Origin: an uncultured Deinococcales bacterium
GTDB lineage: Bacteria; Deinococcota; Deinococci; Deinococcales; JAAFIG01
Length of the DNA: 10,186 nucleotides
Direction of reading: 5' to 3'
Assembly: GCA_964247135.1 (NCBI GenBank)
Contig: CAXTTL010000178.1
Location: 1-10,186, forward strand
The notes beneath the pieces were generated by a model that was not told the DNA's origin, ran no database searches, and saw only the letters and a program-made list of their open reading frames with translations. The translations under genes were made by a program, and so were the position numbers. Each line of letters begins with the position of its first letter. The first letter of the stretch is position 1. Shown here one piece after another: positions 1 through 10,186 of this stretch.

Positions 1-919
1 CAAGGCGTTCTCGCCAACTTTGCGGCGCGAGCACCTCAAGAGAGTCGATAAACTCGACCAGAATTTCCCAGGCGAATGCCTCGGCAACCAGATTGAGTTT
101 GCCGCAGATAAAACCTTGATCTTGCGTGTCCCAGAGAATTTGGGCATGTGGTTGATTCCGTAATCGAAACTCGAGCGAGGGTTTTGCTTTTGCCTTGATA
201 CGCACCGTGAACCACAATTCAGGCACGTTGGCGCGAGCTTCAAAATCCTGAAGCCAGGCTTGCCAGTGGTGTTTTAAAACAAAATCTTTTGGGTACTCAA
301 AAACGTCAAGTGGGTTTGCCAATTCGATTCTCGAGGCGCGAAAGGTTCGGATGCCTGTTGGCGTTCCAGCGATCAGATACCAGACGCTGGCTTTGACCAC
401 CAAGCCCAGCGGTTCGATGCGGCGTTTTGAACTCGAGCCATTGGTTTTGAGGTACCTGATGTCCAAACGCTGTTGCGCCTCGAGTGCGCGTTGCAACACG
501 CCCAGCGTTGGCACTGGTTCGCGGGCGGGCGTCCACTTTTCGGCATCGATCAACAGACGTTCGCGCAGGCGTTGAAATTTGGCTTGGCTCGAGCGCGGCA
601 GTGATGCAAGCAATTTGAGGAGTGCCTGTTCGGTGGGCGGGTTGAAACCCAAGTCCGCCACTGGCACACCCGCAAACAACAAAGCGCTCGCCTCATCGTT
701 ATTCAAGCCCGTCAAATCGCTGCGGTAGCCCTCGAGGAGTTCGACACCGCCGCCAGGTCCTCTGGTGGCGACCACGGGCACTCCAGCCGCGTTCAGGGCA
801 TCCAGGTCACGGTAAATGGTGCGCTCGCTGACCTCGAGTTGCAGCGCCAAGCGTTGCGCCGTGGTTTTTCCAAGGCTTTGCACGGTCAAGAGGATGCTCA
901 AAAGGCGATCTGCCCGCAT
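1..919 (-). CDS. YafY/PafBC-like helix-turn-helix + WYL domain transcriptional regulator (3' end runs off the window)
   Basis: Manual translation from ATG at 919 gives MRADRLLSILLTVQSLGKTTAQRLALQLEVSERTIYRDLDALNAAGVPVVATRGPGGGVELLEGY (typical HTH_11 N-terminus), then RRIEPLGLVVKASVWYLIA...IRTFRASRI (WYL domain motifs). The frame stays open to base 1, so the ORF track missed it. Confidence 0.95.
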   Translation of the reverse strand, partial: MRADRLLSILLTVQSLGKTTAQRLALQLEVSERTIYRDLDALNAAGVPVVATRGPGGGVELLEGYRSDLTGLNNDEASALLFAGVPVADLGFNPPTEQALLKLLASLPRSSQAKFQRLRERLLIDAEKWTPAREPVPTLGVLQRALEAQQRLDIRYLKTNGSSSKRRIEPLGLVVKASVWYLIAGTPTGIRTFRASRIELANPLDVFEYPKDFVLKHHWQAWLQDFEARANVPELWFTVRIKAKAKPSLEFRLRNQPHAQILWDTQDQGFICGKLNLVAEAFAWEILVEFIDSLEVLAPQSWRERL

Positions 920-925
920 GGGAAC

Positions 926-931
926 AGACTA
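926..931 (-). promoter_or_regulatory. -10 element (TAGTCT) of a probable leaderless promoter for the WYL regulator
   Basis: TANNNT hexamer exactly 6 nt upstream of ATG 919, with no Shine-Dalgarno. This is the geometry of Deinococcus-type leaderless genes. Confidence 0.6.
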
Positions 932-936
932 GCAAA

Positions 937-961
937 ATTCCTGACAGCAGGTGTCAGGAAT
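937..961. promoter_or_regulatory. Palindromic operator ATTCCTGACA-N5-TGTCAGGAAT, probable binding site of the adjacent WYL regulator
   Basis: Perfect 10-bp inverted repeat with a 5-bp spacer, lying between the two divergent -10 candidates (926-931 minus, 969-974 plus). Confidence 0.75.
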
Positions 962-968
962 AGCCATT

Positions 969-974
969 TAAGCT
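969..974 (+). promoter_or_regulatory. Candidate -10 element (TAAGCT) for the SRPBCC gene
   Basis: TANNNT just downstream of the operator; purine-rich RBS (GAAAGAGGGAAG, 1001-1012) before ATG 1016. Confidence 0.45.
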
Positions 975-1015
975 GAATTCAGACTCGAGCGTTCGGGTCG
1001 GAAAGAGGGAAGATC

Positions 1016-1477
1016 ATGCTTAAAATCCGATTCGAGAAAACCTTCAGTCACAGCCCAAGCGTCGTTTTTGCAGCCTTCACAGATTCAAAGCTCAAATCCA
1101 AATGGGATACCGAAGTCATTACAGAACACCTCGAGCCGAGCAAACCGATGCGGGTCGGTTCAAAACTCTTTCAAACCCGTCAATTTATGGGGCAGCGCAT
1201 CAAGAGCGTTGGCGTGGTACACGAACTCGAGCTTGACCGATTGCTGGTCATCAACGAAGCCCCAGGCGAACAACATGCCCGTGGTCGAATTGAACTCGAG
1301 CCAGTCTCGGGCAGCGGTTGCAAAATGGTCAAATACTTTGAATTGGACGTTCCAAAGTTGATTGCGCCGCTCGTGGCGTTTGGTATTCGCCAAAGCCTAA
1401 AAAGCCGCTACCGCAACCTCGAGCGTTTGCTGGACGCCCAAATCACAGCCTCGAGGTTGGTCACGACTTCAATTTAA
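1016..1477 (+). CDS. SRPBCC (START/polyketide cyclase-dehydrase-like) family ligand-binding protein, 153 aa
   Basis: Size and pattern (FEKTFSHSPSVVFAAFTD...KWD; PMRVGSKLFQTRQFMGQRI; C-terminal helix NLERLLD) match SRPBCC proteins. RBS present. Its stop overlaps the convergent gene's stop in TTAA 1474-1477. Confidence 0.8.
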   Translation: MLKIRFEKTFSHSPSVVFAAFTDSKLKSKWDTEVITEHLEPSKPMRVGSKLFQTRQFMGQRIKSVGVVHELELDRLLVINEAPGEQHARGRIELEPVSGSGCKMVKYFELDVPKLIAPLVAFGIRQSLKSRYRNLERLLDAQITASRLVTTSI

Positions 1478-2874
1478 GCGCGGTGCTCTTTGGCGGCGTG
1501 GGCGCTCATGCCAAATTGCGGCAGGCTGGCGCTGGCATTCTCGAGAATCACCCGTGAAAGTTCGGCGAGGCTTTTGCCGCCAGATCGCACGTCCATTTTC
1601 AAGTTGGCGCGAAGTTCCGACAATGTGACCTCATCCAGCATGGTTTCGGTGCCGTACCGCAGGGTGCTGGGCGAGACCAGCAGCAAATCGGCTTCGGCGG
1701 GTTTGATGCCGTGCAAAAAGCAGCGCCCCGTCAGCAAGCCTGCCACGGTGGTCGGTTCGCCGAAGGTTTTGTTGTCAATTGCCCTGACCTCAATCTCCAA
1801 ACCCTGAATCGCTCGCAGTGGTTCAACCGCCAGCTCGAGCACGGGCGCGAACAGCGTTCCAGTGCCAAGAATTACTTTGGTCGCTGGAACAGACAATGGC
1901 AATTCTGGCAGCGGTTCGCTTAAAAAATCCCTGACCATGCCCACGCCATTCTCGAGCATCGGATAACCTTCATACGCCTCTTCGGGCGGTAACGGATACC
2001 CCGCCAGAATGTAAAACTCGTCGCTCGGGAAAATGAAGCGCGTGCCGCGCTCCTCGAGCATTTTTTTCTGCCAGACGTGTGCACGGTTTAAGACATCTCG
2101 GGCTTGTTCTTTGTTGAATGGGCGCAAGCTTGGCAGGTTGCGGCGGTGTTCGGTCAAACCCACAGGCACGCACGCCACGGATTGCACGTTGGGCAAACTC
2201 GAGAGGTACTCGATGGATTCATCAAAATGTTCACCGTCGTTGCGTCCTGGCATCAGTACGAGTTGAGTGTACAAATCGATTGGCTCGAGGCGCTTTAACG
2301 CATCTTGAATCTTGGTGGCGTTCTCGTCTTTGACCTTTAACTTCCACCACTTCATCATGTCGGAACGCAAATTTTGATCGGTGGCATGAACGCTGACGTA
2401 CAACGGCGAGAGGTTCTCCGAAAGAATCCGGTTGAAATCGTCGTCGGTTAAATTGGTCAATGTGACAAACGAACCGTACAAGAACGACAGACGGTAATCG
2501 TCGTCCATGATGTACAGACTCTTGCGAAAACCTTTGGGCATTTGATGCACATAACAAAACTCGCATTTGTTGGCGCAAAGTTTAATGCCGTCAAACAGCA
2601 CCTCGGCAAACTCGAGACCAGGGTCTTCCCAGGAAACCTCAAACTCGAGGATTGCCCCAGCCTCGGTTTTGACCTCGAGCTTCACATCGCCGCGCTCGAG
2701 TTCGCGGCGGTAGGCGATGATGTCGGTGATCGCATTGCCGTTGACACGGTGCAGGGCATCGCCCGCCTTCACACCCGCTTTGAACGCCGCCGAACCGTCC
2801 TCGACCCTCGAGATTAATGCAGGATGGATGGACTGAATTGTTTTGTTGAACTCGAATGACAGCACGAAAACCAC
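1474..2874 (-). CDS. DUF512-family putative radical SAM Fe-S protein with N-terminal PDZ domain (TIGR03279-like)
   Basis: PDZ-like N-terminus (VEDGSAAFKAGVKAGDALHRVNG), CxxxCxxC motif CANKCEFC followed by YVHQMPKGFRKSLYIMDDDYRLSFLYGSFVTLTN, SPLYVSVHAT, SDEFYI, YPMLENGVG, TVAGLLTG. The start may be GTG 2865, which has an AAGGTGG RBS 5 nt upstream, rather than GTG 2874. Confidence 0.92.
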   Translation of the reverse strand: MVFVLSFEFNKTIQSIHPALISRVEDGSAAFKAGVKAGDALHRVNGNAITDIIAYRRELERGDVKLEVKTEAGAILEFEVSWEDPGLEFAEVLFDGIKLCANKCEFCYVHQMPKGFRKSLYIMDDDYRLSFLYGSFVTLTNLTDDDFNRILSENLSPLYVSVHATDQNLRSDMMKWWKLKVKDENATKIQDALKRLEPIDLYTQLVLMPGRNDGEHFDESIEYLSSLPNVQSVACVPVGLTEHRRNLPSLRPFNKEQARDVLNRAHVWQKKMLEERGTRFIFPSDEFYILAGYPLPPEEAYEGYPMLENGVGMVRDFLSEPLPELPLSVPATKVILGTGTLFAPVLELAVEPLRAIQGLEIEVRAIDNKTFGEPTTVAGLLTGRCFLHGIKPAEADLLLVSPSTLRYGTETMLDEVTLSELRANLKMDVRSGGKSLAELSRVILENASASLPQFGMSAHAAKEHRA

Positions 2875-2898
2875 CTTTCCCTAAAAGGGCAACGGAAT

Positions 2899-2904
2899 AG
2901 TGTA
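2899..2904 (-). promoter_or_regulatory. Candidate -10 element (TACACT) for the DUF512 gene
   Basis: Near-consensus TANNNT in the short gap between the methyltransferase stop and the DUF512 start. Confidence 0.45.
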
Positions 2905-2929
2905 GCGCAAGAAGGGGTTCTGGGAAAGG

Positions 2930-4105
2930 TCAAAGGTTACTCGAGGTTGAGGAAGACTCAAAGAAGTTGTTCTGTATCGGAGATATTGGCTGATAAAAAC
3001 TGGGTAAGATTCTGGCGTTTGCTCCCTCGAGCGTCTGTTTCAATTGCTGTCCCAGGACATGAGCCAGTCGGACTGGAACAGCATTTCCAATTTGACGCAT
3101 GGCTTCAGTCCAAGCACCTTCAATTTGGTAATGTTCGGGAAAAGTTTGAATTTTTTTGGCTTCAAAAACCGTTAAGTAACGTACTGTTCCATCATCAAAC
3201 CGAATCATGTTCTCTCCACCAGGCACGCCATGATCGCCCGCTTTTAGGGTCTTAGAAACCCAATCAAGTACGCTCCCAGTATGCCCAGAATAACTCCGAG
3301 CACCATCTCTGAAAACATGATCCACAATGCCATGATCACATTGTGGATCTGGAACGCCTTCTAATACATCTCTGATCGTTAGCCAAGGGCGTAAATTGCT
3401 CGCCATTCGAGCCTGTTCGTTGAAGATTGCTGCCAGATCATGACGCTTCCAGTAATCACCGCTCACGTTCATGTCGTACAAAAGTTGCACTCGAGAATGT
3501 GTGGGCTTGGGAAAAGACCAGTTGAGACCGAGATCTGAACGCAAACCAACAATAAAAACCCGTTCGCGCTGTTGTGGAACGCCATAATCTGCGGCGTTCA
3601 GCAGCGAAAAGTGTACACCATAGGTCAAACCCGAATACGGTTGATGTTGTAGTTTGCGCAACTCGAGCAAATGCTGTTTCCAATCTGGCACATGCCAAAC
3701 GGCTTGTGGGTAAGTAAGTCGCAAGCGAATGTACTCGAAGTAATCTGCAAACGAAGTTCGAAGCAATCCTTTGACGTTCTCAAAAATAAAAGCTCGAGGG
3801 GCGAGGGTTTCAATGGCTTTGATAGCTTGCGGAAATAAATCTCGTTCGTCCTGATCTGCACGGTGTTTGCCACCCAGCGAAAATGGCTGACAAGGTGGAC
3901 CACCCGCGACAAGATCAACAGAATCGAATCTCGAGAAATCAAAATCCTGGACGTCGCCATGAAAAACCTTAGTAGATTCAAAATTCTGTTGCAACGTCGC
4001 ACTCGCATGTTTGTTACGCTCTACCAATGCGACATGCTCAAATCCTGCCAGTGACAATCCTGTGGCAAGCCCACCTGCGCCCGAAAAAAGCTCGAGGGAT
4101 TTCAT
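2930..4105 (-). CDS. DNA (cytosine-5)-methyltransferase, M.Eco29kI-like (predicted CCGCGG)
   Basis: Motif I LELFSGAGG, catalytic motif IV GGPPCQPFS, motif VI FENVKGL, motif VIII YGVPQQRERVF, motif X QIGNAVP. Coupled to the endonuclease gene by an ATGA overlap (4102-4105). Specificity is inferred from the partner enzyme. Confidence 0.95.
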   Translation of the reverse strand: MKSLELFSGAGGLATGLSLAGFEHVALVERNKHASATLQQNFESTKVFHGDVQDFDFSRFDSVDLVAGGPPCQPFSLGGKHRADQDERDLFPQAIKAIETLAPRAFIFENVKGLLRTSFADYFEYIRLRLTYPQAVWHVPDWKQHLLELRKLQHQPYSGLTYGVHFSLLNAADYGVPQQRERVFIVGLRSDLGLNWSFPKPTHSRVQLLYDMNVSGDYWKRHDLAAIFNEQARMASNLRPWLTIRDVLEGVPDPQCDHGIVDHVFRDGARSYSGHTGSVLDWVSKTLKAGDHGVPGGENMIRFDDGTVRYLTVFEAKKIQTFPEHYQIEGAWTEAMRQIGNAVPVRLAHVLGQQLKQTLEGANARILPSFYQPISPIQNNFFESSSTSSNL

Positions 4106-4752
4106 GACTGTACCTCGAGCGCTTCAAAATAGGTTGCAATACGTTCAAAAATCTGGTTTTCAGCATTTGCAGTTCCGAGGCATTTTTCTGCCCAAGCCCT
4201 GCCCGTATGAATCACATCCCAATCCGATTTGGCTTGTTGATAACGCCCACGTCCAGGATCATGATTACCAAAACCGTCGAGTGTTGTGTTCCATAATGGG
4301 CGATGCCATTGAATCAATGCTGCTTCAATTGTGCCAATCATGTCGGAACTACTGTCTTCAAAAATCATAAACCGACACGCAAAATCTCCAAGTTCGAGAT
4401 TTGAAACTACTTCGAGGTTTCGTTGATGTTCCCGTAACCGATTGCAAAGTTCTCTGGATTGTTGCGCCAAGCTCGAGGTTCTGGATTGTCGCCAGCCCTT
4501 TGGAACAGCCTTTCCAACATAAATTGGATTGTTGTACGCCAAGCGATTGAGTTCACCGTATTTGCTGTAAATGCCCATCGTCCCTGTGTAATAGAGGGCG
4601 TACACTCCAGTCCCAAGAAACGTTGCGGTAAATGGAAAAGTATGAACCGGTGTGCCATTAAAAAACCGAATTGCGTCTTTAACAAGCTCAACAAACGCAT
4701 CGTTTGTATAAAGATGTTGAATTCGATCAAAGGCTTGAGCTGTTCTAAACAT
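4102..4752 (-). CDS. Eco29kI-family GIY-YIG type II restriction endonuclease (predicted CCGC/GG)
   Basis: GVYALYY and PIYVGKAVP (GIY-YIG hairpin), NRLREH, TIEAALI, PLWN, GFGNHDPG, SDWDVIH. From recall it is closely collinear with R.Eco29kI, and the catalytic Tyr/Tyr/Arg/His/Glu/Asn equivalents all appear present. Confidence 0.93.
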   Translation of the reverse strand: MFRTAQAFDRIQHLYTNDAFVELVKDAIRFFNGTPVHTFPFTATFLGTGVYALYYTGTMGIYSKYGELNRLAYNNPIYVGKAVPKGWRQSRTSSLAQQSRELCNRLREHQRNLEVVSNLELGDFACRFMIFEDSSSDMIGTIEAALIQWHRPLWNTTLDGFGNHDPGRGRYQQAKSDWDVIHTGRAWAEKCLGTANAENQIFERIATYFEALEVQS

Positions 4753-4761
4753 TCCGTTGAC

Positions 4762-4770
4762 AGCGTATCA
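4762..4770 (-). promoter_or_regulatory. Candidate extended -10 promoter (TGaTACGCT) for the R-M operon
   Basis: TGn+TANNNT ending 9 nt before ATG 4752, with no convincing SD, implying a near-leaderless transcript. Confidence 0.4.
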
Positions 4771-4898
4771 TGACCGACAAAAGGCAGGAAGTTTAACCCA
4801 AATTTTGTAACTTTTCTAACGCTATGGCACGCTTGTTATTCAAAATGGTCACATTGCGCAATCCTCGAGCCGCCTGCATGACACGTTCAAAAAAACCT

Positions 4899-4920
4899 GT
4901 GACGCTCCAGTGACGCTCCA
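4899..4920. repeat. Perfect 11-bp tandem direct repeat (GTGACGCTCCA)x2, probable transcription factor site
   Basis: Seen directly. It lies immediately upstream of a TAAACT -10 candidate (4926-4931) for the lipoprotein gene. Confidence 0.65.
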
Positions 4921-4941
4921 AATTCTAAACTCCGTTCGTTC

Positions 4942-5001
4942 CTCGAGCAGAGGAAACCCGAACTTGAAAGACCCTGACTTTTACAGTTTGGGTTTCTCGA
5001 G
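4942..5001 (+). other. Long imperfect inverted repeat / hairpin bounded by two CTCGAG sites, in the probable 5' UTR of the lipoprotein gene
   Basis: GAAACCCGAACT (4953-4964) pairs with AGTTTGGGTTTC (4985-4996; one G-U). An inner stem TGAAAG/CTTTTA closes a 7-nt loop. CTCGAG at 4942 and 4996. Confidence 0.6.
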
Positions 5002-5023
5002 CGGGCATTTCATGGAGGTTTTT

Positions 5024-5461
5024 ATGAAAAAAGTTGTTCTTGGTTTGGCTTTGCTCGCTGCGACACTGACCGCCTGCCCTGGAGGCGGCGTTGGCGGGGC
5101 AAACACCATTTCTGGCGCTTTGCAGTTGCCGGCGGGCAAGGCGTTCTCGGCGGCGATCACACTGCAAATCGTGGGGTGTTTTATCGAAGCGAACACCTGC
5201 ACCAACAGCAATCCCAACAACAAGACTGTCAATATCAGCGCCAAAAAGGGTGATACTCAAGTGCCTTTTACCCTCAGCGATCTGAAAGCAGGTAACTATT
5301 TTGTGGTGCTGGTCGATAGCAGCGGTCCAGTCGGTGGTTATATCGACAACGGTGAACAATTTATTGCTGTGACCCCGCCAAAAACCGATGTCAAAGTGAC
5401 GATCAAACCCTCATTGCTGCAAGGCAAAACGCCGTTTCAAACCATGTCAATCACACCTTAA
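5024..5461 (+). CDS. Small lipoprotein of unknown function (145 aa), probably beta-rich
   Basis: GGAGG RBS at 5014-5018, then ATG 5024. MKK + hydrophobic stretch + lipobox LTA-C, followed by a Gly-rich linker and a Cys pair (CFIEANTC). The ORF track's start at 4910 is over-extended. Confidence 0.85.
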   Translation: MKKVVLGLALLAATLTACPGGGVGGANTISGALQLPAGKAFSAAITLQIVGCFIEANTCTNSNPNNKTVNISAKKGDTQVPFTLSDLKAGNYFVVLVDSSGPVGGYIDNGEQFIAVTPPKTDVKVTIKPSLLQGKTPFQTMSITP

Positions 5462-5467
5462 GACAAG

Positions 5468-5508
5468 AAAATCTCTCGAGCCAGGTTTTGAATGGCTGGA
5501 GAGATTTT
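5468..5508. terminator. Probable bidirectional intrinsic terminator between the convergent lipoprotein and psuG genes
   Basis: AAAATCTCTCGAGCCA / TGGCTGGAGAGATTTT inverted repeat (15 of 16 paired), 9-nt loop, A4/T4 ends. Confidence 0.75.
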
Positions 5509-5523
5509 GATTCCAGACGTAAC

Positions 5524-6429
5524 CTAAAAGTTCGAGCGTAATTTTGCTAGCGCCACCGCAATCTCGCCGCCCAACCGCGCATTTTCGCGCAACAAAATTC
5601 CGTTCACGCGGTCTGTCTCGCCGTTTGAAAGGCTCGAGAGTCGCCGCAGCAAGAACGGTGTCAGGGCTTTGGCATTCACACCTTCGCGCCGCGCCTCGTG
5701 GTTGGCGGCTTCGACCCAACGTTCGACTTGATCAAAAGGCAGTCCTTCGCTGACGGGGTTCGCCACCAGTATCGCTTGGTGCAAGCCAAAATCGTGCGAT
5801 GCCAGAAACGCGCTGGCAATCTCGAGTGGCGTGTCGAGTTGCGCCGCCACCGAAAATGGGCTGTGCGGTGTGTGAAACGCGGGCAGGCTGGCGGTTTTAT
5901 AGCCGATCACCGCAACGCCCAGCGTCTCGAGGCGCTCGAGGGTGGCGTGAAGGTTGAGAATGCTTTTCGCGCCAGCGCAGATCACAATGATCGGCGTGCG
6001 AGCCAGTGCAGGAAGGTCGGCGCTTTCGTCGAAGGCATCAAAATGCACGCCGCCGATGCCGCCCGTGGCGAAGACATCGATGCCCGCCAGTCGCGCCAAG
6101 TGTGCGGTTGCCGCCACCGTTGTGCCGCCGTGCGCTTTTTTCGCCACAATCGCGGGTAAATTCCACAGACTGACTTTTTCGATGCCGCCTCGCGCCATCA
6201 ACTCGAGTTGCGCGTCATCGAGTCCAACATGCACCCGACCCTCGAGCAGTGCAATGGTCGCAGGAATCGCCCCCGCGCTGCGCACCTCAGCCTCGAGTTG
6301 ATGCGCCGTCTCGAGGTTGAGTGGGTACGGCAAGCCGTGCGAGATCACGGTACTCTCGAGCGCCACCACGGGTTGTTTGTTCTCGAGGGCGGTTTTGACT
6401 TCTGGATGGTACATCAGTTTGGGGTTCAT
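5524..6429 (-). CDS. psuG: Pseudouridine-5'-phosphate glycosidase (PsuG/IndA family)
   Basis: Family motifs PVVALESTVISHGLPYP, GGTTVAAT, FATGGIGGVH, DESADL, CAGAKSILN (Schiff-base Lys region), TPFLL, NARLG; 301 aa. Confidence 0.95.
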   Translation of the reverse strand: MNPKLMYHPEVKTALENKQPVVALESTVISHGLPYPLNLETAHQLEAEVRSAGAIPATIALLEGRVHVGLDDAQLELMARGGIEKVSLWNLPAIVAKKAHGGTTVAATAHLARLAGIDVFATGGIGGVHFDAFDESADLPALARTPIIVICAGAKSILNLHATLERLETLGVAVIGYKTASLPAFHTPHSPFSVAAQLDTPLEIASAFLASHDFGLHQAILVANPVSEGLPFDQVERWVEAANHEARREGVNAKALTPFLLRRLSSLSNGETDRVNGILLRENARLGGEIAVALAKLRSNF

Positions 6430-6461
6430 AAATCACGTCTTTCGTGGAATCTCAAGCATCG

Positions 6462-6479
6462 GGCGCGAGGCTTCGCGCC
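6462..6479. other. GC-rich intercistronic hairpin GGCGCGA-N4-TCGCGCC between the permease gene and psuG
   Basis: 7-bp perfect stem. No U-tract follows on the minus strand, so it is more likely an mRNA stability/processing element than a terminator. Confidence 0.45.
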
Positions 6480-6488
6480 ACAGAAATT

Positions 6489-7499
6489 TTACGGATACGG
6501 TTTGCCAATCGCTTTGGGTGCCCTCGAGCGTCCAATAAAGCCTGCCAGCACCAGAATGGTGAGTATAAACGGCAGCACATCGACCACGGCGGAGGGCAGA
6601 ATGTCGTCACCGCCCAAACGGATTGCCAGGGCTTTGAAAAAACCGAACAGCAGGCAGGCGAACATGGTGTTCCAAGGCAACCACTTGCCGAAAATTAGGG
6701 CTGCCAGGGCAATAAAGCCTTGGTTGGCGCTCATGCCCCTGTTGAATTTGTCCAGGTTGCCGATGCTTAAATACGCTCCAGCCAAACCTGCCAGCACGCC
6801 CGAGATGATCACAGCGGTGTAACGCATTTGCATGACGTTGACCCCAACGCTGGCGGCGGCTTGCGGGGCTTCGCCGACGCTGCGCAGCCTCAAACCGAAA
6901 GGGGTGCGGTAGAGCACGTAAGACACGACCGGAACGATCAAGAAGGCGGCATAAACCAGCGGCGAAAACTGAACCGCGCCGATGCCCCATAAAGGCAAGA
7001 CGTTGATGACCGATGCCGAGTCGGAGGTGTTGTTGTAAAAATACTGCAAAATCACGGCTGGTACACCTGTCGCCAGCAAATTGATGGCAGTCCCAGAAAT
7101 CACTTGATCGGCACGGTATTTGATCGAAGCCAGCGCATGAATCCAGGCGACAAAACCGCCCACCAGCATGGCGGCAAGCACGCCAACCCACGGTACCCAG
7201 GGCAGGGCAGCATTGGGGTCGGTTTTCAAAAATGGGGCTTCGACCTGCTGGGCAACCACGGCTGCCGCCAGAGCGCCAAACAGCATGATGCCCTCGAGCG
7301 CAATGTTGACAATGCCCGAGCGTTCGGAGAACAATCCGCCCAGCGCGGCGAACAAGAGTGGTGTCGTGAACCTGAGTGTGGTTGGGATCAAGACCGCCAA
7401 TGCCGCCACGACCGCACTCGAGGGGGCGACAATGGCAAGCACGATCAGCACCAAAATAAATACTGCCCCAGCAATCAACCACGGGGAACGGAAATTCAT
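6489..7499 (-). CDS. Nucleoside/simple-sugar ABC transporter permease (NupC/YufQ-like, BPD_transp_2)
   Basis: TPLLFAALGGLFSERSGIVNIALEGIMLFGA, ADQVISGTAINLLA, TPFGLRLRSVGEAPQAAASVGVNV, GFIALAALIFGKW, C-terminal APKAIGKPY. ATGA overlap with the upstream permease. Confidence 0.93.
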   Translation of the reverse strand: MNFRSPWLIAGAVFILVLIVLAIVAPSSAVVAALAVLIPTTLRFTTPLLFAALGGLFSERSGIVNIALEGIMLFGALAAAVVAQQVEAPFLKTDPNAALPWVPWVGVLAAMLVGGFVAWIHALASIKYRADQVISGTAINLLATGVPAVILQYFYNNTSDSASVINVLPLWGIGAVQFSPLVYAAFLIVPVVSYVLYRTPFGLRLRSVGEAPQAAASVGVNVMQMRYTAVIISGVLAGLAGAYLSIGNLDKFNRGMSANQGFIALAALIFGKWLPWNTMFACLLFGFFKALAIRLGGDDILPSAVVDVLPFILTILVLAGFIGRSRAPKAIGKPYP

Positions 7500-9394
7500 A
7501 CGTCCACCTGGGCTTGCTTCTCGAGTTCAGGTTCTTTGGGCGGCGGGGCTGGTTTAAAAAAACTGTTCGGTAAAAAACCACGCGTGGCAATGAACAGCAC
7601 AATCAAAGCTTGCAGCACCGTCACAATTTCCCTCGAGACTTTATCGAGCGCCTGATCGAGGTTCAGTCCGCCCGTACCGAGCACGCCAAACAAAATGCTC
7701 GAGACGATCACGCCGACGGGGGTGTTTTGCCCGAGCAGCGCGACGGTGATGCCGCCAAAACCAGCGATATCGGCGGGCATCGATTGTTTGAGGCGGTATT
7801 CGGTGAGCGCCCCACCGAGCACGTAATGGGTCGCGCCCAGACCGCACAGCGCGCCCGAGATTGCCATTGCCATGATGGTGTTGCGCCCGATGTTGACCCC
7901 ACCATACTCGGCGGCTTTGGGGGCAAGTCCGACGGCTCGCATGTCAAAACCGTAGGCGGTGCGCCACAGGAACACGCCGACAAAAACGGCTGCCAACAGG
8001 GACACCAGAAAAGATACGTTCAAACCAGAGTTGGTCATCGATCCCGAAATGTTCAGGGTGATTTTGGGCAGAATTAAACCGAGTACCACGCCCGCAATCG
8101 CCCCAGCCCCAGAGGTCAAACCTCGACGACGGAAGTCGCCCCTCGAGAAAACCCAACCGAGCGCCAGCCCAATGAGTGCGAGCGGCAACATCAGGGTGAT
8201 TTGGTTTTGTCCGGTGCGCAAACCGAACAGTTCGACCATGTTTTGCAATCGTGCGCCCTCGCCCAAGAGGGCGCTTTTGGCTTCGCCGCCCTCGGCTTTG
8301 AACGGAAGATGTACGGTCTGACCAAAGAATTTGTAATCGTTCGCGCCGATCAAAAACACCAGAACGCCCGCCGCGATTGAATTGAGCATGATCGTGTTAA
8401 TCACCTCTGATGATCCGAAACGGGCTTTGAGCCAACCTGGAAGCGCCCCCCACAAACCGCCACCGACGGCGGCGGCAACCACCGCCAGCGGTCCAATGAC
8501 AATCCAAGGTCCTGGAATGTAAACGCCGACGGCGGTGGCGAACAACGCGCCAAACACGATTTGCCCTGGTGCGCCAATGTTAAACAGACCAGTGCGAAAA
8601 CCGAATGCCAAGCCAAGACCGCTGAAAATCAGTGGCGTCGCCAGCGACAAGCTCTGCCAGATGCCGGATAAATCCAGACTCGGGCGGAACTTGGGCAGCG
8701 CGGGTCCGAGCAAGCTCGAGTACGAAAACCACAGCAGGTCGATGTGTCCGATCAGGCTCGAGATTGGGTCTGGGTGAAGGTCGTTGCCTGGGACGCCCTG
8801 CAAAATCAGAATCACCACGCCACCAACAACCATTGCAAGGAGCATGGCGATGACTGGAACGAGTCCGCCTCGGGCTGCGGCGAATGCTCGCGCTCGAGTT
8901 GGGTTTTGTGCCAGGCTGTAGACGATGGCGGCGATGCCAACAAAAAGACTTAAGAACAGCCAGAGATTCGGTCCAAGGTTGCGAAACGGCAAGCGGCGAT
9001 AGGCGGTGCCAGCCGCCAAAAGCGGCGCTTGAATCAAATCGATGGCACGAACGAACAAAGCCGTGTCGATGATGGTCAGAACAATCACCAGCACGCCAGC
9101 AACCAGGGTCCATCTTGACCGCGTGAATGCCAAACCCGCCAAGACCAGCAATGCCAGAATCAACAACCAAGCCACCAGGGTCACGCCAGCGAAATCTGGC
9201 AGGGTGCTTGGCAGGCGCCCCGTAAAGTCGAGGATTCGCCCGGGATGAATCAGTAACGCACCCTCGCCACCGAACGACCTCGAGAGCGTGCCCAAGGGCA
9301 CCAGAAAACTGGCGAGGGCGGTCAGAATGGCAAAACCCGCCACAACGGGTCCATAACGGTCATTGGGTTTTGCTCGGGTCATGGCGGTGGTCAC
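7496..9394 (-). CDS. Nucleoside ABC transporter permease (NupB/YufP-like) with extra N-terminal membrane region, 632 aa
   Basis: ATPLIFSGLGLAFGFRTGLFNIGAPGQ, LKARFGSSEVINTIMLN, TAYGFDMRAVG, GFGGITVALLGQNTPVG. The GTG start is supported by a TAGAAT -10 six nt upstream. Confidence 0.92.
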   Translation of the reverse strand: MTTAMTRAKPNDRYGPVVAGFAILTALASFLVPLGTLSRSFGGEGALLIHPGRILDFTGRLPSTLPDFAGVTLVAWLLILALLVLAGLAFTRSRWTLVAGVLVIVLTIIDTALFVRAIDLIQAPLLAAGTAYRRLPFRNLGPNLWLFLSLFVGIAAIVYSLAQNPTRARAFAAARGGLVPVIAMLLAMVVGGVVILILQGVPGNDLHPDPISSLIGHIDLLWFSYSSLLGPALPKFRPSLDLSGIWQSLSLATPLIFSGLGLAFGFRTGLFNIGAPGQIVFGALFATAVGVYIPGPWIVIGPLAVVAAAVGGGLWGALPGWLKARFGSSEVINTIMLNSIAAGVLVFLIGANDYKFFGQTVHLPFKAEGGEAKSALLGEGARLQNMVELFGLRTGQNQITLMLPLALIGLALGWVFSRGDFRRRGLTSGAGAIAGVVLGLILPKITLNISGSMTNSGLNVSFLVSLLAAVFVGVFLWRTAYGFDMRAVGLAPKAAEYGGVNIGRNTIMAMAISGALCGLGATHYVLGGALTEYRLKQSMPADIAGFGGITVALLGQNTPVGVIVSSILFGVLGTGGLNLDQALDKVSREIVTVLQALIVLFIATRGFLPNSFFKPAPPPKEPELEKQAQVDV

Positions 9395-9400
9395 AGCGAC

Positions 9401-9406
9401 ATTCTA
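9401..9406 (-). promoter_or_regulatory. -10 element (TAGAAT) of a probable leaderless promoter for the permease-permease-psuG operon
   Basis: Near-consensus -10 exactly 6 nt before GTG 9394, no SD. Confidence 0.7.
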
Positions 9407-9470
9407 CCCATCTGACTCGAGAAACGGCTAGCCAGTGTGCAATTTGGGGATGCCATCAGCCGTGTATGTA

Positions 9471-9486
9471 CTATGCTGTAGCATAG
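9471..9486. promoter_or_regulatory. Palindrome CTATGCT-GT-AGCATAG in the divergent permease/pilT intergenic region
   Basis: Perfect 7-bp arms with a 2-bp spacer; each arm contains a TATGCT -10-like hexamer. Confidence 0.45.
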
Positions 9487-9553
9487 GATTAAAGATACAC
9501 AACGCTCGAGCCTGGTATTTTCGGGAGATACGGTTCGGGTAGGGGGACTTTGC

Positions 9554-10186
9554 ATGGCTTCAATTATTGACTTGTTAAAAACGATGGTTTCGCGCAATGC
9601 CTCCGATGTTCACCTTCAGGTGGGTTCGCCGCCAATCGGTCGGGTCGATGGCAAGCTGGTGCAATTTGGCACGCAACCGATGTTGCCAGACCAAACCATG
9701 ATTATCGCCAAGACCTTGCTGAACGCCGAGCAGTGGGAAGAGTTCGAGTACCGCCACGAGCTTGATTTCGCCTACCTGATTCCTGGGGTGGCACGGTTTA
9801 GATGCAACATTTTCAGGCAACGTGGTTCGGTCGGAATTGTCATGCGAATTATCGCAGACACGATTCCGTCCTTTGAGGCGCTTGGGCTGCCCTCAGAGCT
9901 GCTCGAGAGTTTTGCGGCGAACGAGCGCGGGATTATTTTGACCACCGGTCCGACGGGTTCGGGCAAGAGCACCACCTTGGCGAGCATTGTCGATCACATC
10001 AACCGCACCTATGCCCATAACGTGATCACGATTGAAGACCCGATTGAAATTTTACATAAAAACCAGCGCAGCATTATTGTCCAGCGCGAGATCGGTTCGG
10101 ACACCAGCGATTTTAAAACCGCACTAAAGTATGCCATGCGTCAAGACCCCGATGTCATCATGATCGGTGAGATGCGCGACAAAGAA
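9554..10186 (+). CDS. pilT: PilT/PilU-family type IV pilus retraction ATPase (3' end runs off the window)
   Basis: AGGGGGA RBS at 9541-9547, ATG 9554. Translation MASIIDLLKTMVSRNASDVHLQVGSPP...RFRCNIFRQRG, Walker A TGPTGSGKSTTLA, Asp box TIEDPIE, AMRQDPDVIMIGEMRD (Walker B). Not in the ORF track. Which PilT paralogue it is cannot be determined here. Confidence 0.93.
   Translation, partial: MASIIDLLKTMVSRNASDVHLQVGSPPIGRVDGKLVQFGTQPMLPDQTMIIAKTLLNAEQWEEFEYRHELDFAYLIPGVARFRCNIFRQRGSVGIVMRIIADTIPSFEALGLPSELLESFAANERGIILTTGPTGSGKSTTLASIVDHINRTYAHNVITIEDPIEILHKNQRSIIVQREIGSDTSDFKTALKYAMRQDPDVIMIGEMRDKE

Follow-up and report, generated by a model that had tools for sequence, protein, structure and literature searches.

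CTCGAG behaves as an actively maintained, highly iterated palindrome in the genomes of an uncultured Deinococcales family

The window analysed here is the whole of a 10,186-nucleotide contig (CAXTTL010000178.1) of an uncultured Deinococcales bacterium, and the element in question is the palindromic hexamer CTCGAG, which is dispersed through it. The window carries genes for a WYL regulator and an SRPBCC protein, a restriction-modification (R-M) cassette, an open reading frame (ORF) followed by an Indigoidine_A-family gene, and a gene for a T2SSE ATPase, and CTCGAG was found both within and between genes (Table 1). An earlier sequence-only reading of this DNA had counted about 61 sites and estimated a more than 20-fold enrichment. 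We recovered the same 61 sites at the same coordinates, and the enrichment was larger than first stated; 200 dinucleotide-preserving shuffles of the window gave a mean of 1.95 copies (standard deviation 1.38, maximum 7), and 0 of the 200 gave 61. By codon phase, 33 sites were CTC-GAG, 20 were nnC-TCG-AGn (330, 432 and 588 among them), 3 were nCT-CGA-G (3490, 3793 and 8893), and 5 were intergenic. Seven sites had previously been called intergenic. Five of these are certain, whereas the two at 4942 and 4996 depend on the choice of start codon: the longest ORF takes in both when read from its GTG at 4910, but its first ATG, at 5012, follows them. In related loci, L003 has CTCGAG at both of these positions, and L001 has one CTCGAG and one CTCGGG.

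Table 1. Positions of CTCGAG sites and associated features in the window
Feature	Position	Strand	Basis or remark
61 dispersed CTCGAG	170..9907	strandless (palindrome)	direct count and codon phases
Intergenic CTCGAG between WYL-regulator gene (2-919, -) and SRPBCC gene (1016-1477, +)	984..989		certain
C5 methyltransferase (PF00145) and Eco29kI-type nuclease (PF09517) cassette	2935..4893	-	Pfam matches
Intergenic CTCGAG at edge of inserted R-M cassette	4864..4869		certain
Two CTCGAG (4942, 4996)	4942..5001		intergenic only if ORF 4910-5461 starts at ATG 5012
Intergenic CTCGAG between ORF 4910-5461 and Indigoidine_A-family gene	5475..5480		certain; kept in L001 and L003
Intergenic CTCGAG upstream of T2SSE ATPase gene	9416..9421		certain; in 3/5 relatives, missing in 2 (turnover)
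Intergenic CTCGAG	9505..9510		certain; kept in 5/5 same-genus relatives

The genome to which the window belongs (G000, with the window as contig C178) comprises 5,091,702 bases in 386 contigs with a GC content of 52.7%. It contains 33,925 CTCGAG, which corresponds to one per 150 bp, 6,660 per Mb, or about 4% of all bases; CTCGAG is the top hexamer by count, and its enrichment over the zero-order expectation is 24.7-fold. Genome-wide over-representation of a short palindrome by at least an order of magnitude is a property of the class of highly iterated palindromes (HIPs), and CTCGAG shows it in G000. The ratio to a maximal-order Markov expectation was just 1.24, because the pentamers themselves carry the signal. 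The enrichment was not restricted to one contig, since all 297 contigs of at least 5 kb carry CTCGAG, at 2.6-10.5 per kb (median 6.8), and none of the 1,473 5-kb windows in G000 had fewer than 8 sites. This all-contig density, together with the occurrence of the trait in 19 of 19 genomes of the family and with ORFs that remain intact across the sites, rules out a contig-level or assembly artefact. The trait was also found in six relatives recorded as metagenome-assembled genomes (MAGs) with differently named isolates.

In an ORF-based gene model of G000 (4,345 genes, 4.32 Mb), coding CTCGAG numbered 28,533 (6.6 per kb), in comparison with about 3,935 after within-gene synonymous codon shuffling (7.3-fold) and about 1,682 after whole-codon shuffling. 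All three phases were occupied, with 17,853 CTC-GAG, 4,145 nCT-CGA-G and 6,535 nnC-TCG-AGn. Short intergenic spacers (1,924 spacers, 228.6 kb, GC 45.7%) contained 2,114 CTCGAG (9.2 per kb) where about 43 were expected, an excess of about 49-fold. Intergenic density peaked at 13.9 per kb in the first 20 bp after stop codons, and by spacer type it was 11.8 per kb in convergent, 9.3 in tandem and 7.7 in divergent spacers. CTCGAG is thus enriched in all reading frames and in noncoding DNA beyond codon usage, as HIPs are, and the synonymous shuffle, the whole-codon shuffle and the intergenic excess rule out an explanation by codon or amino-acid preference, as the sequence-only reading had argued. 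Neither a loss under synonymous shuffling with absence from intergenic DNA nor confinement to a single contig, the two outcomes on which the enrichment had been staked, was observed.

For a pairwise comparison, 250,646 bases of G000 were aligned to G005, a genome of the same genus, at 85% identity. Among aligned CTCGAG, 1,414 were common to both genomes, 286 were present in G005 only and 372 in G000 only, and the conservation of 81% ranked first of 1,279 hexamers with enough data (median 47%). Of CTC codons followed by GAG, 836 of 903 kept their third base, as did 637 of 990 other CTC codons; for GAG the corresponding figures were 829 of 896 behind CTC and 734 of 1,033 elsewhere. Synonymous positions were thus 92.5% conserved inside the motif versus 64-71% outside it. 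In short intergenic spacers, 57 of 77 CTCGAG (74%) were conserved, compared with 40% of 6,472 other hexamer positions. CTCGAG therefore shares with HIPs a conservation beyond that of control motifs and of the same codons outside the motif. For the sites of the window, conservation in five same-genus syntenic loci (85-87% identity) was 32/38, 22/24, 31/38, 27/29 and 32/36 of aligned sites (82-93%), and in a locus at 68% identity 7 of 13 sites were kept.

Differences between G000 and G005 within CTCGAG were mainly transitions, distributed evenly over the symmetric position pairs (105, 99 and 81), and they showed no methyl-cytosine mutation hotspot. The ratio of CTCGAG to each one-mismatch neighbour was 15-50 to 1 (log 2.7-3.9), with CTAGAG set aside because CTAG itself is avoided, and these neighbours were present at roughly background frequency rather than depleted. 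The 16S genes of G011 and G015 contain 0 CTCGAG, versus 13-14 in their 3-kb flanks. A present-day force holds CTCGAG sites in place against mutation, and it gives way just to strong constraint such as that on 16S rRNA. The earlier claim of an active system that creates or maintains CTCGAG is borne out in this respect by the top rank in hexamer conservation, the slowing of synonymous change and the intergenic conservation. The ratio of sites to neighbours and the four- to five-fold drop in synonymous change would fit a weak fixation bias with a scaled S of about 3; this fit is that of a mutation-bias equilibrium and is the same whether the bias lies in selection or in transmission. CTCGAG is accordingly an actively maintained, HIP-like highly iterated palindrome that occupies all codon phases and is denser in noncoding DNA.

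New sites arose even where they changed amino acids. No dipeptide in G000 is more over-represented than Leu-Glu (23,078 observed; observed/expected 2.35), 77% of which is encoded CTC-GAG. The ratio for Ser-Ser was 1.61, mainly by TCG-AGC or TCG-AGT. In two other family genomes the Leu-Glu ratio was 2.36 and 2.16, and in two sister-family genomes of similar GC it was 1.15 and 1.23. Just 22 of 116 and 28 of 111 CTCGAG-encoded Leu-Glu pairs were also Leu-Glu in the orthologues of these two outgroups (a small sample of 23 and 15 proteins), and across the same aligned orthologues G000 had 136-140 Leu-Glu versus 73-83 in the outgroups. Most CTCGAG-encoded Leu-Glu pairs are therefore derived amino-acid changes.

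The distribution of CTCGAG was assessed by whole-genome counts in five families and in a phylum sample of 251 genomes; family and genus labels (f, g) are anonymous, and f1 is the family of G000. The whole-genome counts gave 4.3-6.8 CTCGAG per kb in the 19 genomes of f1 (5 genera, sampled GC 45-61%), 1.7-2.9 in 5 genomes of f4, 0.9-2.3 in 5 genomes of f5, 0.6-2.0 in 6 genomes of f2, and 0.03-0.27 in 6 genomes of f3. In the 251-genome sample, several f2 genera reached 2.1-2.6 per kb, and about seven genomes of f3/g35 and of f5/g13, g18 and g19 reached 3.0-3.6. The trait is thus fixed in one uncultured Deinococcales family (19/19) and is graded and patchy elsewhere in the phylum. The sharpest difference was between G258 (f3/g36), with 24,536 CTCGAG in 3.5 Mb (7.0 per kb), and G202, its congener by label, with 683 in 2.3 Mb (0.2-0.3 per kb), a 35-fold difference in density at the same GC (0.51). 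G258 is highly fragmented, with contigs of about 2 kb (three of 2.1-2.5 kb were uninformative for placement), and its genus label is provisional; should the label hold, these two genomes would be ideally suited to tracking down the gene responsible. In genus g9 (30 genomes) CTCGAG was roughly as frequent as GAGCTC, and in genus g7 (92 genomes) it was avoided, at 0.01-0.27 per kb or 26-1,010 copies per genome of 1.9-6.7 Mb, yet none of the 92 yielded an XhoI-family nuclease. The same hexamer is hence avoided in one branch of Deinococcota and hyper-accumulated in another. Genome size, GC and species number suggest that g7 is Deinococcus, g9 Thermus and g13 Meiothermus.

Normalisation by synonymous shuffling was carried out in relatives on samples of 5-40 kb (just 6.8 kb for G258). 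The excess was 3.3-3.8-fold in G201, G203, G122 and G095 (Leu-Glu 1.5-1.9), 6.7-fold in G205 and 8.7-fold in G225, and there was none in G022 (0.8) or G202 (1.0). Some of these values are what would be expected if CTCGAG were a passive by-product of codon usage, of amino-acid or base composition, of palindrome avoidance, or of assembly: both codons of CTC-GAG are in common use, which partly explains the 1-3 per kb of high-GC relatives, CTCGAG about equals GAGCTC in g9, and the ratio in G022 is 0.8. The excess in G000 over the synonymous shuffle and in its intergenic DNA, the rank of CTCGAG as the most conserved hexamer, its presence throughout the family and the intact ORFs across its sites leave such a by-product with next to no probability.

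Most other 6-bp palindromes are strongly avoided in G000, with 47 of the 64 palindromic hexamers at less than half of expectation. GAGCTC has 0 copies, GGGCCC 1, CGGCCG 3, AGGCCT 4, CGTACG 5, GGATCC 7, CCGCGG 11 and CAGCTG 15, and several of the avoided palindromes match R-M nuclease types encoded in the genome (SacI, NgoPII, Eco29kI, PvuII and NotI types). G000 has at least eight R-M-type loci, in which six methyltransferases adjoin recognisable nucleases. With the usual target of each type in brackets, there is a SacI-type nuclease beside a D12 methyltransferase on C320 (GAGCTC), a PvuII-type nuclease on C36 (CAGCTG), an NgoPII-type nuclease on C14 (GGCC; the four palindromic NGGCCN 6-mers have 1-125 copies), the Eco29kI-type nuclease of the window (CCGCGG), a NotI-type nuclease on C207 (GCGGCCGC, the core of which is CGGCCG), an MvaI/BcnI-type nuclease on C189 (CCWGG or CCSGG), and MmeI-like proteins on C21 and C192. 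We take the targets of these nucleases to be palindromes that G000 avoids, the opposite of CTCGAG, for which none of the nucleases is left as a partner. Each nuclease-linked methyltransferase (C36, C189, C14, window, C320 and C207) was rejected as a CTCGAG enzyme, its partner nuclease being of another type, as were the two MmeI-like proteins, and the C36 and C207 enzymes were also patchy among relatives. D12-class methyltransferases were dismissed as a universal candidate, as they formed two patchy groups, each in 3 of 6 genomes.

The R-M cassette of the window had been predicted to recognise CCGCGG and had been judged not to explain CTCGAG, a judgement that still stands: the cassette is of Eco29kI type and has been inserted by comparison with L001 and L003, which have some 68 bp at this point, and CCGCGG has just 11 copies in the genome. 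It carries 10 CTCGAG despite a GC content of 44-47%. Positions 1-1472 of the window, with the WYL regulator and the SRPBCC gene, likewise do not align to L001 or L003.

In the manner proposed for HIP1, the cyanobacterial palindrome GCGATCGC, an orphan methyltransferase would mark CTCGAG, and methyl-directed repair or recombination would convert near-sites and protect existing ones. The anatomy of CTCGAG resembles that of HIP1, as described in PMC5861425, in abundance, frame independence and conservation beyond codons, and Elhai reported a cognate methyltransferase in every HIP-bearing cyanobacterium (PMC4390886). CTCGAG methylation has been reported in hot-spring communities, for a group whose host phylum is unnamed in the accessible text (10.64898/2026.06.24.734251), and every genome of the Deinococcales family encodes several methyltransferases to which no specificity is assigned. 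Five Pfam families (PF01555, PF00145, PF02384, PF07669 and PF02086) were searched in six family genomes, namely G000 and five others from four genera (91-94% complete), and orthogroups were built with one ORF per matching locus at a minimum of 35% identity over at least 60% of the length. No methyltransferase orthogroup was present in more than 3 of the 6 genomes and none was common to G011, G008 and G009, a negative bounded by the five families, by specificity not being readable from sequence, and by most of the genomes being incomplete MAGs. There was no PF01555 (N6_N4) match in the single-contig genome G011 and no PF00145 (C5) match in G008. The group to which the methyltransferase ORF of locus L045 belongs occurs in G000, G009, G006, G017 and G018 and is absent from G011. 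A cognate methyltransferase in every motif-bearing genome, as in the HIPs, was thus not seen in the six genomes within these five families.

Vsr was found in 0 of 19 family genomes, with positive controls, and very-short-patch repair was rejected on this ground and because the one-mismatch neighbours are not depleted. An XhoI-family nuclease (PF04555) was likewise absent from all six family genomes searched; the search itself works, as it found the nuclease in 4 of the 251 phylum genomes, three in f4 and a broken copy in G031. The arrangement of an XhoI/PaeR7I-type R-M system, a CTCGAG nuclease encoded with its cognate methyltransferase, was therefore not seen in these six genomes. In the three f4 genomes an N6_N4 methyltransferase adjoins the XhoI nuclease, and its identity to the nearest family proteins is 22-30%, which as a sequence match points to family-level similarity only. 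In the broken locus (L408, G031:C1:1094188-1097598), the nuclease gene is interrupted by one TGA and one TAG, and its neighbour is a 463-aa protein with 24% identity to an Eco57I-family (PF07669) match in G007; the locus may represent an R-M system in decay, with its methyltransferase surviving as an orphan.

The sequence-only reading had further proposed that an orphan CTCGAG or TCGA methyltransferase would track the enrichment, and this found no backing, given the distribution of the orthogroups of the five families in the six genomes, the lack of Vsr in the 19 genomes and the lack of a close relative of the XhoI-linked methyltransferase. Its claim of a HIP1-like pattern was upheld in that CTCGAG is dispersed, frame-independent, and both coding and noncoding, but a conserved methyltransferase of the HIP1 kind was not found within the five families. 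Adding the six G000 methyltransferases that adjoin nucleases whose usual targets are avoided, and the lack of a methyl-cytosine hotspot, we consider maintenance by methylation unlikely.

The flanks of CTCGAG are near random in G000 (G at -1 in 39% of sites, C at +1 in 38%), and the commonest 12-mer around it accounts for just 109 of 33,913 sites genome-wide. This makes the hexamer the unit, as had been claimed from the window. A weak A at -3 and G at -1 aside, there was no conserved sequence beyond the core, of the kind that a dispersed repeat element (a repetitive extragenic palindrome, REP, or a miniature inverted-repeat transposable element, MITE) would have. In intergenic DNA of G000 this flank preference is weak and two-fold symmetric, A-A-G·CTCGAG·C-T-T. 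An extended palindrome or hairpin centre was rejected, with complementary -1/+1 flank pairs under-represented at 0.44-0.92 of independence.

Nearest-neighbour gaps in G000 were more even than in a Poisson process. Gaps shorter than 25 bp numbered 2,363 versus 5,203 expected, those of 50-200 bp 18,778 versus 15,234, and those of 300-1,000 bp 3,527 versus 4,397; there were 85 gaps of at least 1 kb versus 40 expected. A gap of 6, which would form GAGCTC, did not occur, and a gap of 8 occurred 11 times, so that the sites show a short-range mutual repulsion up to about 60 bp. HIPs are expected to show quasi-periodic spacing, and a test for periodicity had been suggested earlier; within 600 bp there was no period apart from 3 bp.

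Even spacing and short-range repulsion are what would be expected if an abundant dimeric chromosome-organising protein bound CTCGAG, with selection acting on density and even spacing and not on single sites. The lack of any 5-kb window with fewer than 8 sites, the symmetric flank preference and the keeping of sites in both coding and noncoding DNA are in line with such a protein, and PMC5861425 draws a similar conclusion for HIP1. The explanation does not predict the on/off difference within one genus label (G258 at 7.0 and G202 at 0.3 per kb), nor the host-like density of CRISPR-sampled DNA described below; simpler explanations exist for the short-range repulsion, 3 bp was the sole period within 600 bp, and no candidate protein was identified. 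An organising protein seems to us as improbable as maintenance by methylation.

DNA that enters these cells was sampled through their CRISPR spacers. The G000 array (C221:6962-8137) has a 37-nt repeat that itself contains CTCGAG, and arrays of the same type occur in relatives. From loci with a delimitable 37-nt repeat we obtained 101 unique spacers in 6 genomes of 4 genera, after five loci with mis-delimited repeats and eleven loci that held no array had been dropped. The spacers (GC 53.5%) contain 26 CTCGAG in 3,516 bp (7.4 per kb) at scattered offsets, and 0 GAGCTC. Since this density is host-like, the DNA met by these cells is as motif-rich as their chromosomes. Only one of the 101 spacers has a counterpart in G000 away from the array (35 of 37 bases, C25:927-961), in a chromosomal gene of peroxiredoxin type (AhpC/TSA), an apparent case of self-targeting or of a spacer taken from the chromosome of a relative. 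C25 was considered as a viral contig and rejected, as it looked chromosomal.

The longest CTCGAG-free stretches in G000 are islands of 27-40% GC. Four of them, at 27-30% GC, extend over 1.7-2.6 kb (C13:11892-14536, C70:14167-16418, C13:4757-6745 and C20:7985-9673) and are probably recent foreign DNA. Viral contigs with CTCGAG were rejected as a link to phages, because those among the matches listed were mostly from high-GC phages in which GAGCTC is common too; of the contigs fetched, none resembled G000 and none matched any of the 101 spacers, again among the matches listed. In one IMG/VR contig, G042 (72,862 bp, GC 59%; L346-L349), CTCGAG is the commonest palindrome, with 186 copies (2.6 per kb), and 17 palindromic hexamers are wholly absent, including GAGCTC (0). 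G042 could not be linked to the family, since it carries palindromes that G000 avoids, and no family spacer matched it. The HK97-type major capsid (PF05065) gave no match above cut-off in the 19 f1 genomes; HK97-type prophages appear rare in the family, and a prophage route was discarded. The competence channel ComEC (PF03772) is intact in 18 of 19 family genomes.

Spacers at host-like density and foreign-looking islands free of sites would both be expected if CTCGAG were a self tag, read in a Chi-like manner by a defence or DNA-end-processing system that spares or repairs CTCGAG-rich DNA and degrades DNA lacking it; the chromosome and successful mobile elements would then both be selected to carry it. 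Restriction pressure is also heavy in G000, as its at least eight R-M-type loci and the extreme avoidance of other palindromes indicate. A palindrome, however, cannot give the orientation that Chi-type signals use, known Chi enrichments are few-fold and not 25-fold, motif-rich DNA is still taken as spacers, and no reader protein was identified. We regard a self tag as very unlikely.

The reading that we rank first, and put forward tentatively as having rather less than an even chance, is that CTCGAG accumulates because DNA exchange among relatives includes a biased, sequence-specific step. A protein of two-fold symmetry, acting in an uptake or recombination pathway, would prefer DNA that bears CTCGAG, and site-gaining alleles would be passed on more often than site-losing alleles. 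The resulting molecular drive would be of the kind proposed for the DNA uptake sequence (DUS), the uptake signal sequence (USS) and recently HIP1, and a cognate methyltransferase would not be required. We rank the exchange drive first because one mechanism, with no methyltransferase involved, would account for a bias that is weak at each site, for the excess of sites where DNA is unconstrained and for their even spacing, as well as for the effect on the proteome, for foreign islands poor in the motif and incoming DNA rich in it, and for the on/off distribution. It also agrees with the direction of work on HIP1, which PMC13756078 now links to, or suspects in, DNA uptake or transformation. Beside the spacing, the islands and the spacers, we count in its favour the density after stop codons, ComEC, the recently inserted R-M cassette with its CTCGAG sites, and the weak two-fold symmetry of the flanks.

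Several serious points weigh against an exchange drive. No uptake receptor or other reader protein was identified, and ComEC is at most permissive: 40 of 41 genomes of the order have it, those of lineages that do not show the trait among them. Known uptake sequences are 9-12 nt long, non-palindromic and present at about 1 per kb, and CTCGAG, with 6 nt, a palindromic form and 6.7 copies per kb, is a word unlike any of them. The observed conservation, equilibrium and spacing would be expected equally under selection for a function in cis or under biased gene conversion. Close pairs may be too few simply because two self-complementary copies would form a hairpin or because GAGCTC is avoided, and the spacers, if they come from lytic phages, could not have been enriched by an uptake drive. 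A CTCGAG methyltransferase from a family outside the five, or a set of non-orthologous enzymes sharing this specificity, may also exist, the MAGs being 74-94% complete. Somewhat less likely again than exchange bias as such is its more specific form, a methylation-independent drive in Deinococcota in which a dimeric uptake or recombination reader favours CTCGAG and is gained or lost between close relatives such as G258 and G202.

If a drive of this form operates, it would over time have overwritten about 4% of the DNA and altered amino acids at thousands of positions throughout one family. Palindromes of the HIP type would then not be peculiar to cyanobacteria, but something on which lineages generally converge when DNA exchange is biased by sequence, and experiments could address them in culturable relatives with a roughly 10-fold enrichment. 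The phylum offers a natural dose series, from strong avoidance to 25-fold enrichment and with an on/off difference inside one genus, and this series, the pair G258 and G202 especially, could be used to find the responsible gene by phylogenetic profiling. A weak bias at the nucleotide level measurably remodels proteins here, with Leu-Glu doubled, and k-mer-based binning, codon-usage models and dN/dS analyses are biased in these genomes.

Full-text literature searches, whose scope excluded part of PubMed Central, subscription journals and REBASE, returned no report of CTCGAG over-representation in any prokaryote, and the only report of over-representation found concerns intergenic DNA of the honey bee (PMC3903499). 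As a highly iterated palindrome, CTCGAG is new in its phylum and in its word; it is also denser, and no cognate methyltransferase is conserved with it in the genomes searched. To judge from the accessible parts of the HIP papers, such palindromes have been a puzzle for 30 years and have been treated as cyanobacterial; CTCGAG is a second, independent case, denser than any figure quoted there for HIP1, and the apparent lack of a conserved methyltransferase parts such palindromes from the enzyme link that has directed research on HIP1.

Among known systems, the neisserial DUS and the Pasteurellaceae USS are alike in showing an excess over the whole genome and both strands, a concentration near gene ends, where constraint is lowest, and rarity in recently acquired DNA, and the CTCGAG family has the uptake channel ComEC. 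DUS and USS are likewise evenly spaced and affect the encoded peptides. They differ in being asymmetric, and Neisseria has a defined receptor for its DUS; CTCGAG is not an asymmetric word of 9-12 nt. The XhoI/PaeR7I target is the same hexamer, and XhoI-family nucleases with an adjacent N6_N4 methyltransferase exist in the three f4 genomes, but R-M targets are normally avoided, and all the others are avoided in G000, whereas CTCGAG is 25-fold enriched there; the nuclease was found in 0 of the 6 family genomes searched. Chi and KOPS, the FtsK-orienting polar sequences, are also short words over-represented across the chromosome and read by DNA-processing machinery; they are asymmetric and strand-skewed, which a palindrome cannot be, and their enrichment is few-fold. 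The closest likeness is to HIP1 and the alternate cyanobacterial palindromes. HIP1 is an octamer of cyanobacteria and CTCGAG a hexamer of Deinococcota, and HIP1 density is given as 300-2,700 per Mb in PMC4390886, compared with 6,660 per Mb for CTCGAG. Unlike HIP1, CTCGAG visibly distorts dipeptide composition, showed no period but 3 bp within 600 bp, and came with no conserved cognate methyltransferase among the genomes searched. Both are nevertheless short, GC-containing palindromes that are hyper-abundant in all frames and in noncoding DNA, both are conserved between genomes beyond the same codons outside the motif (PMC4390886, PMC5861425 and PMC13756078), and both are lineage-level traits with exceptions.

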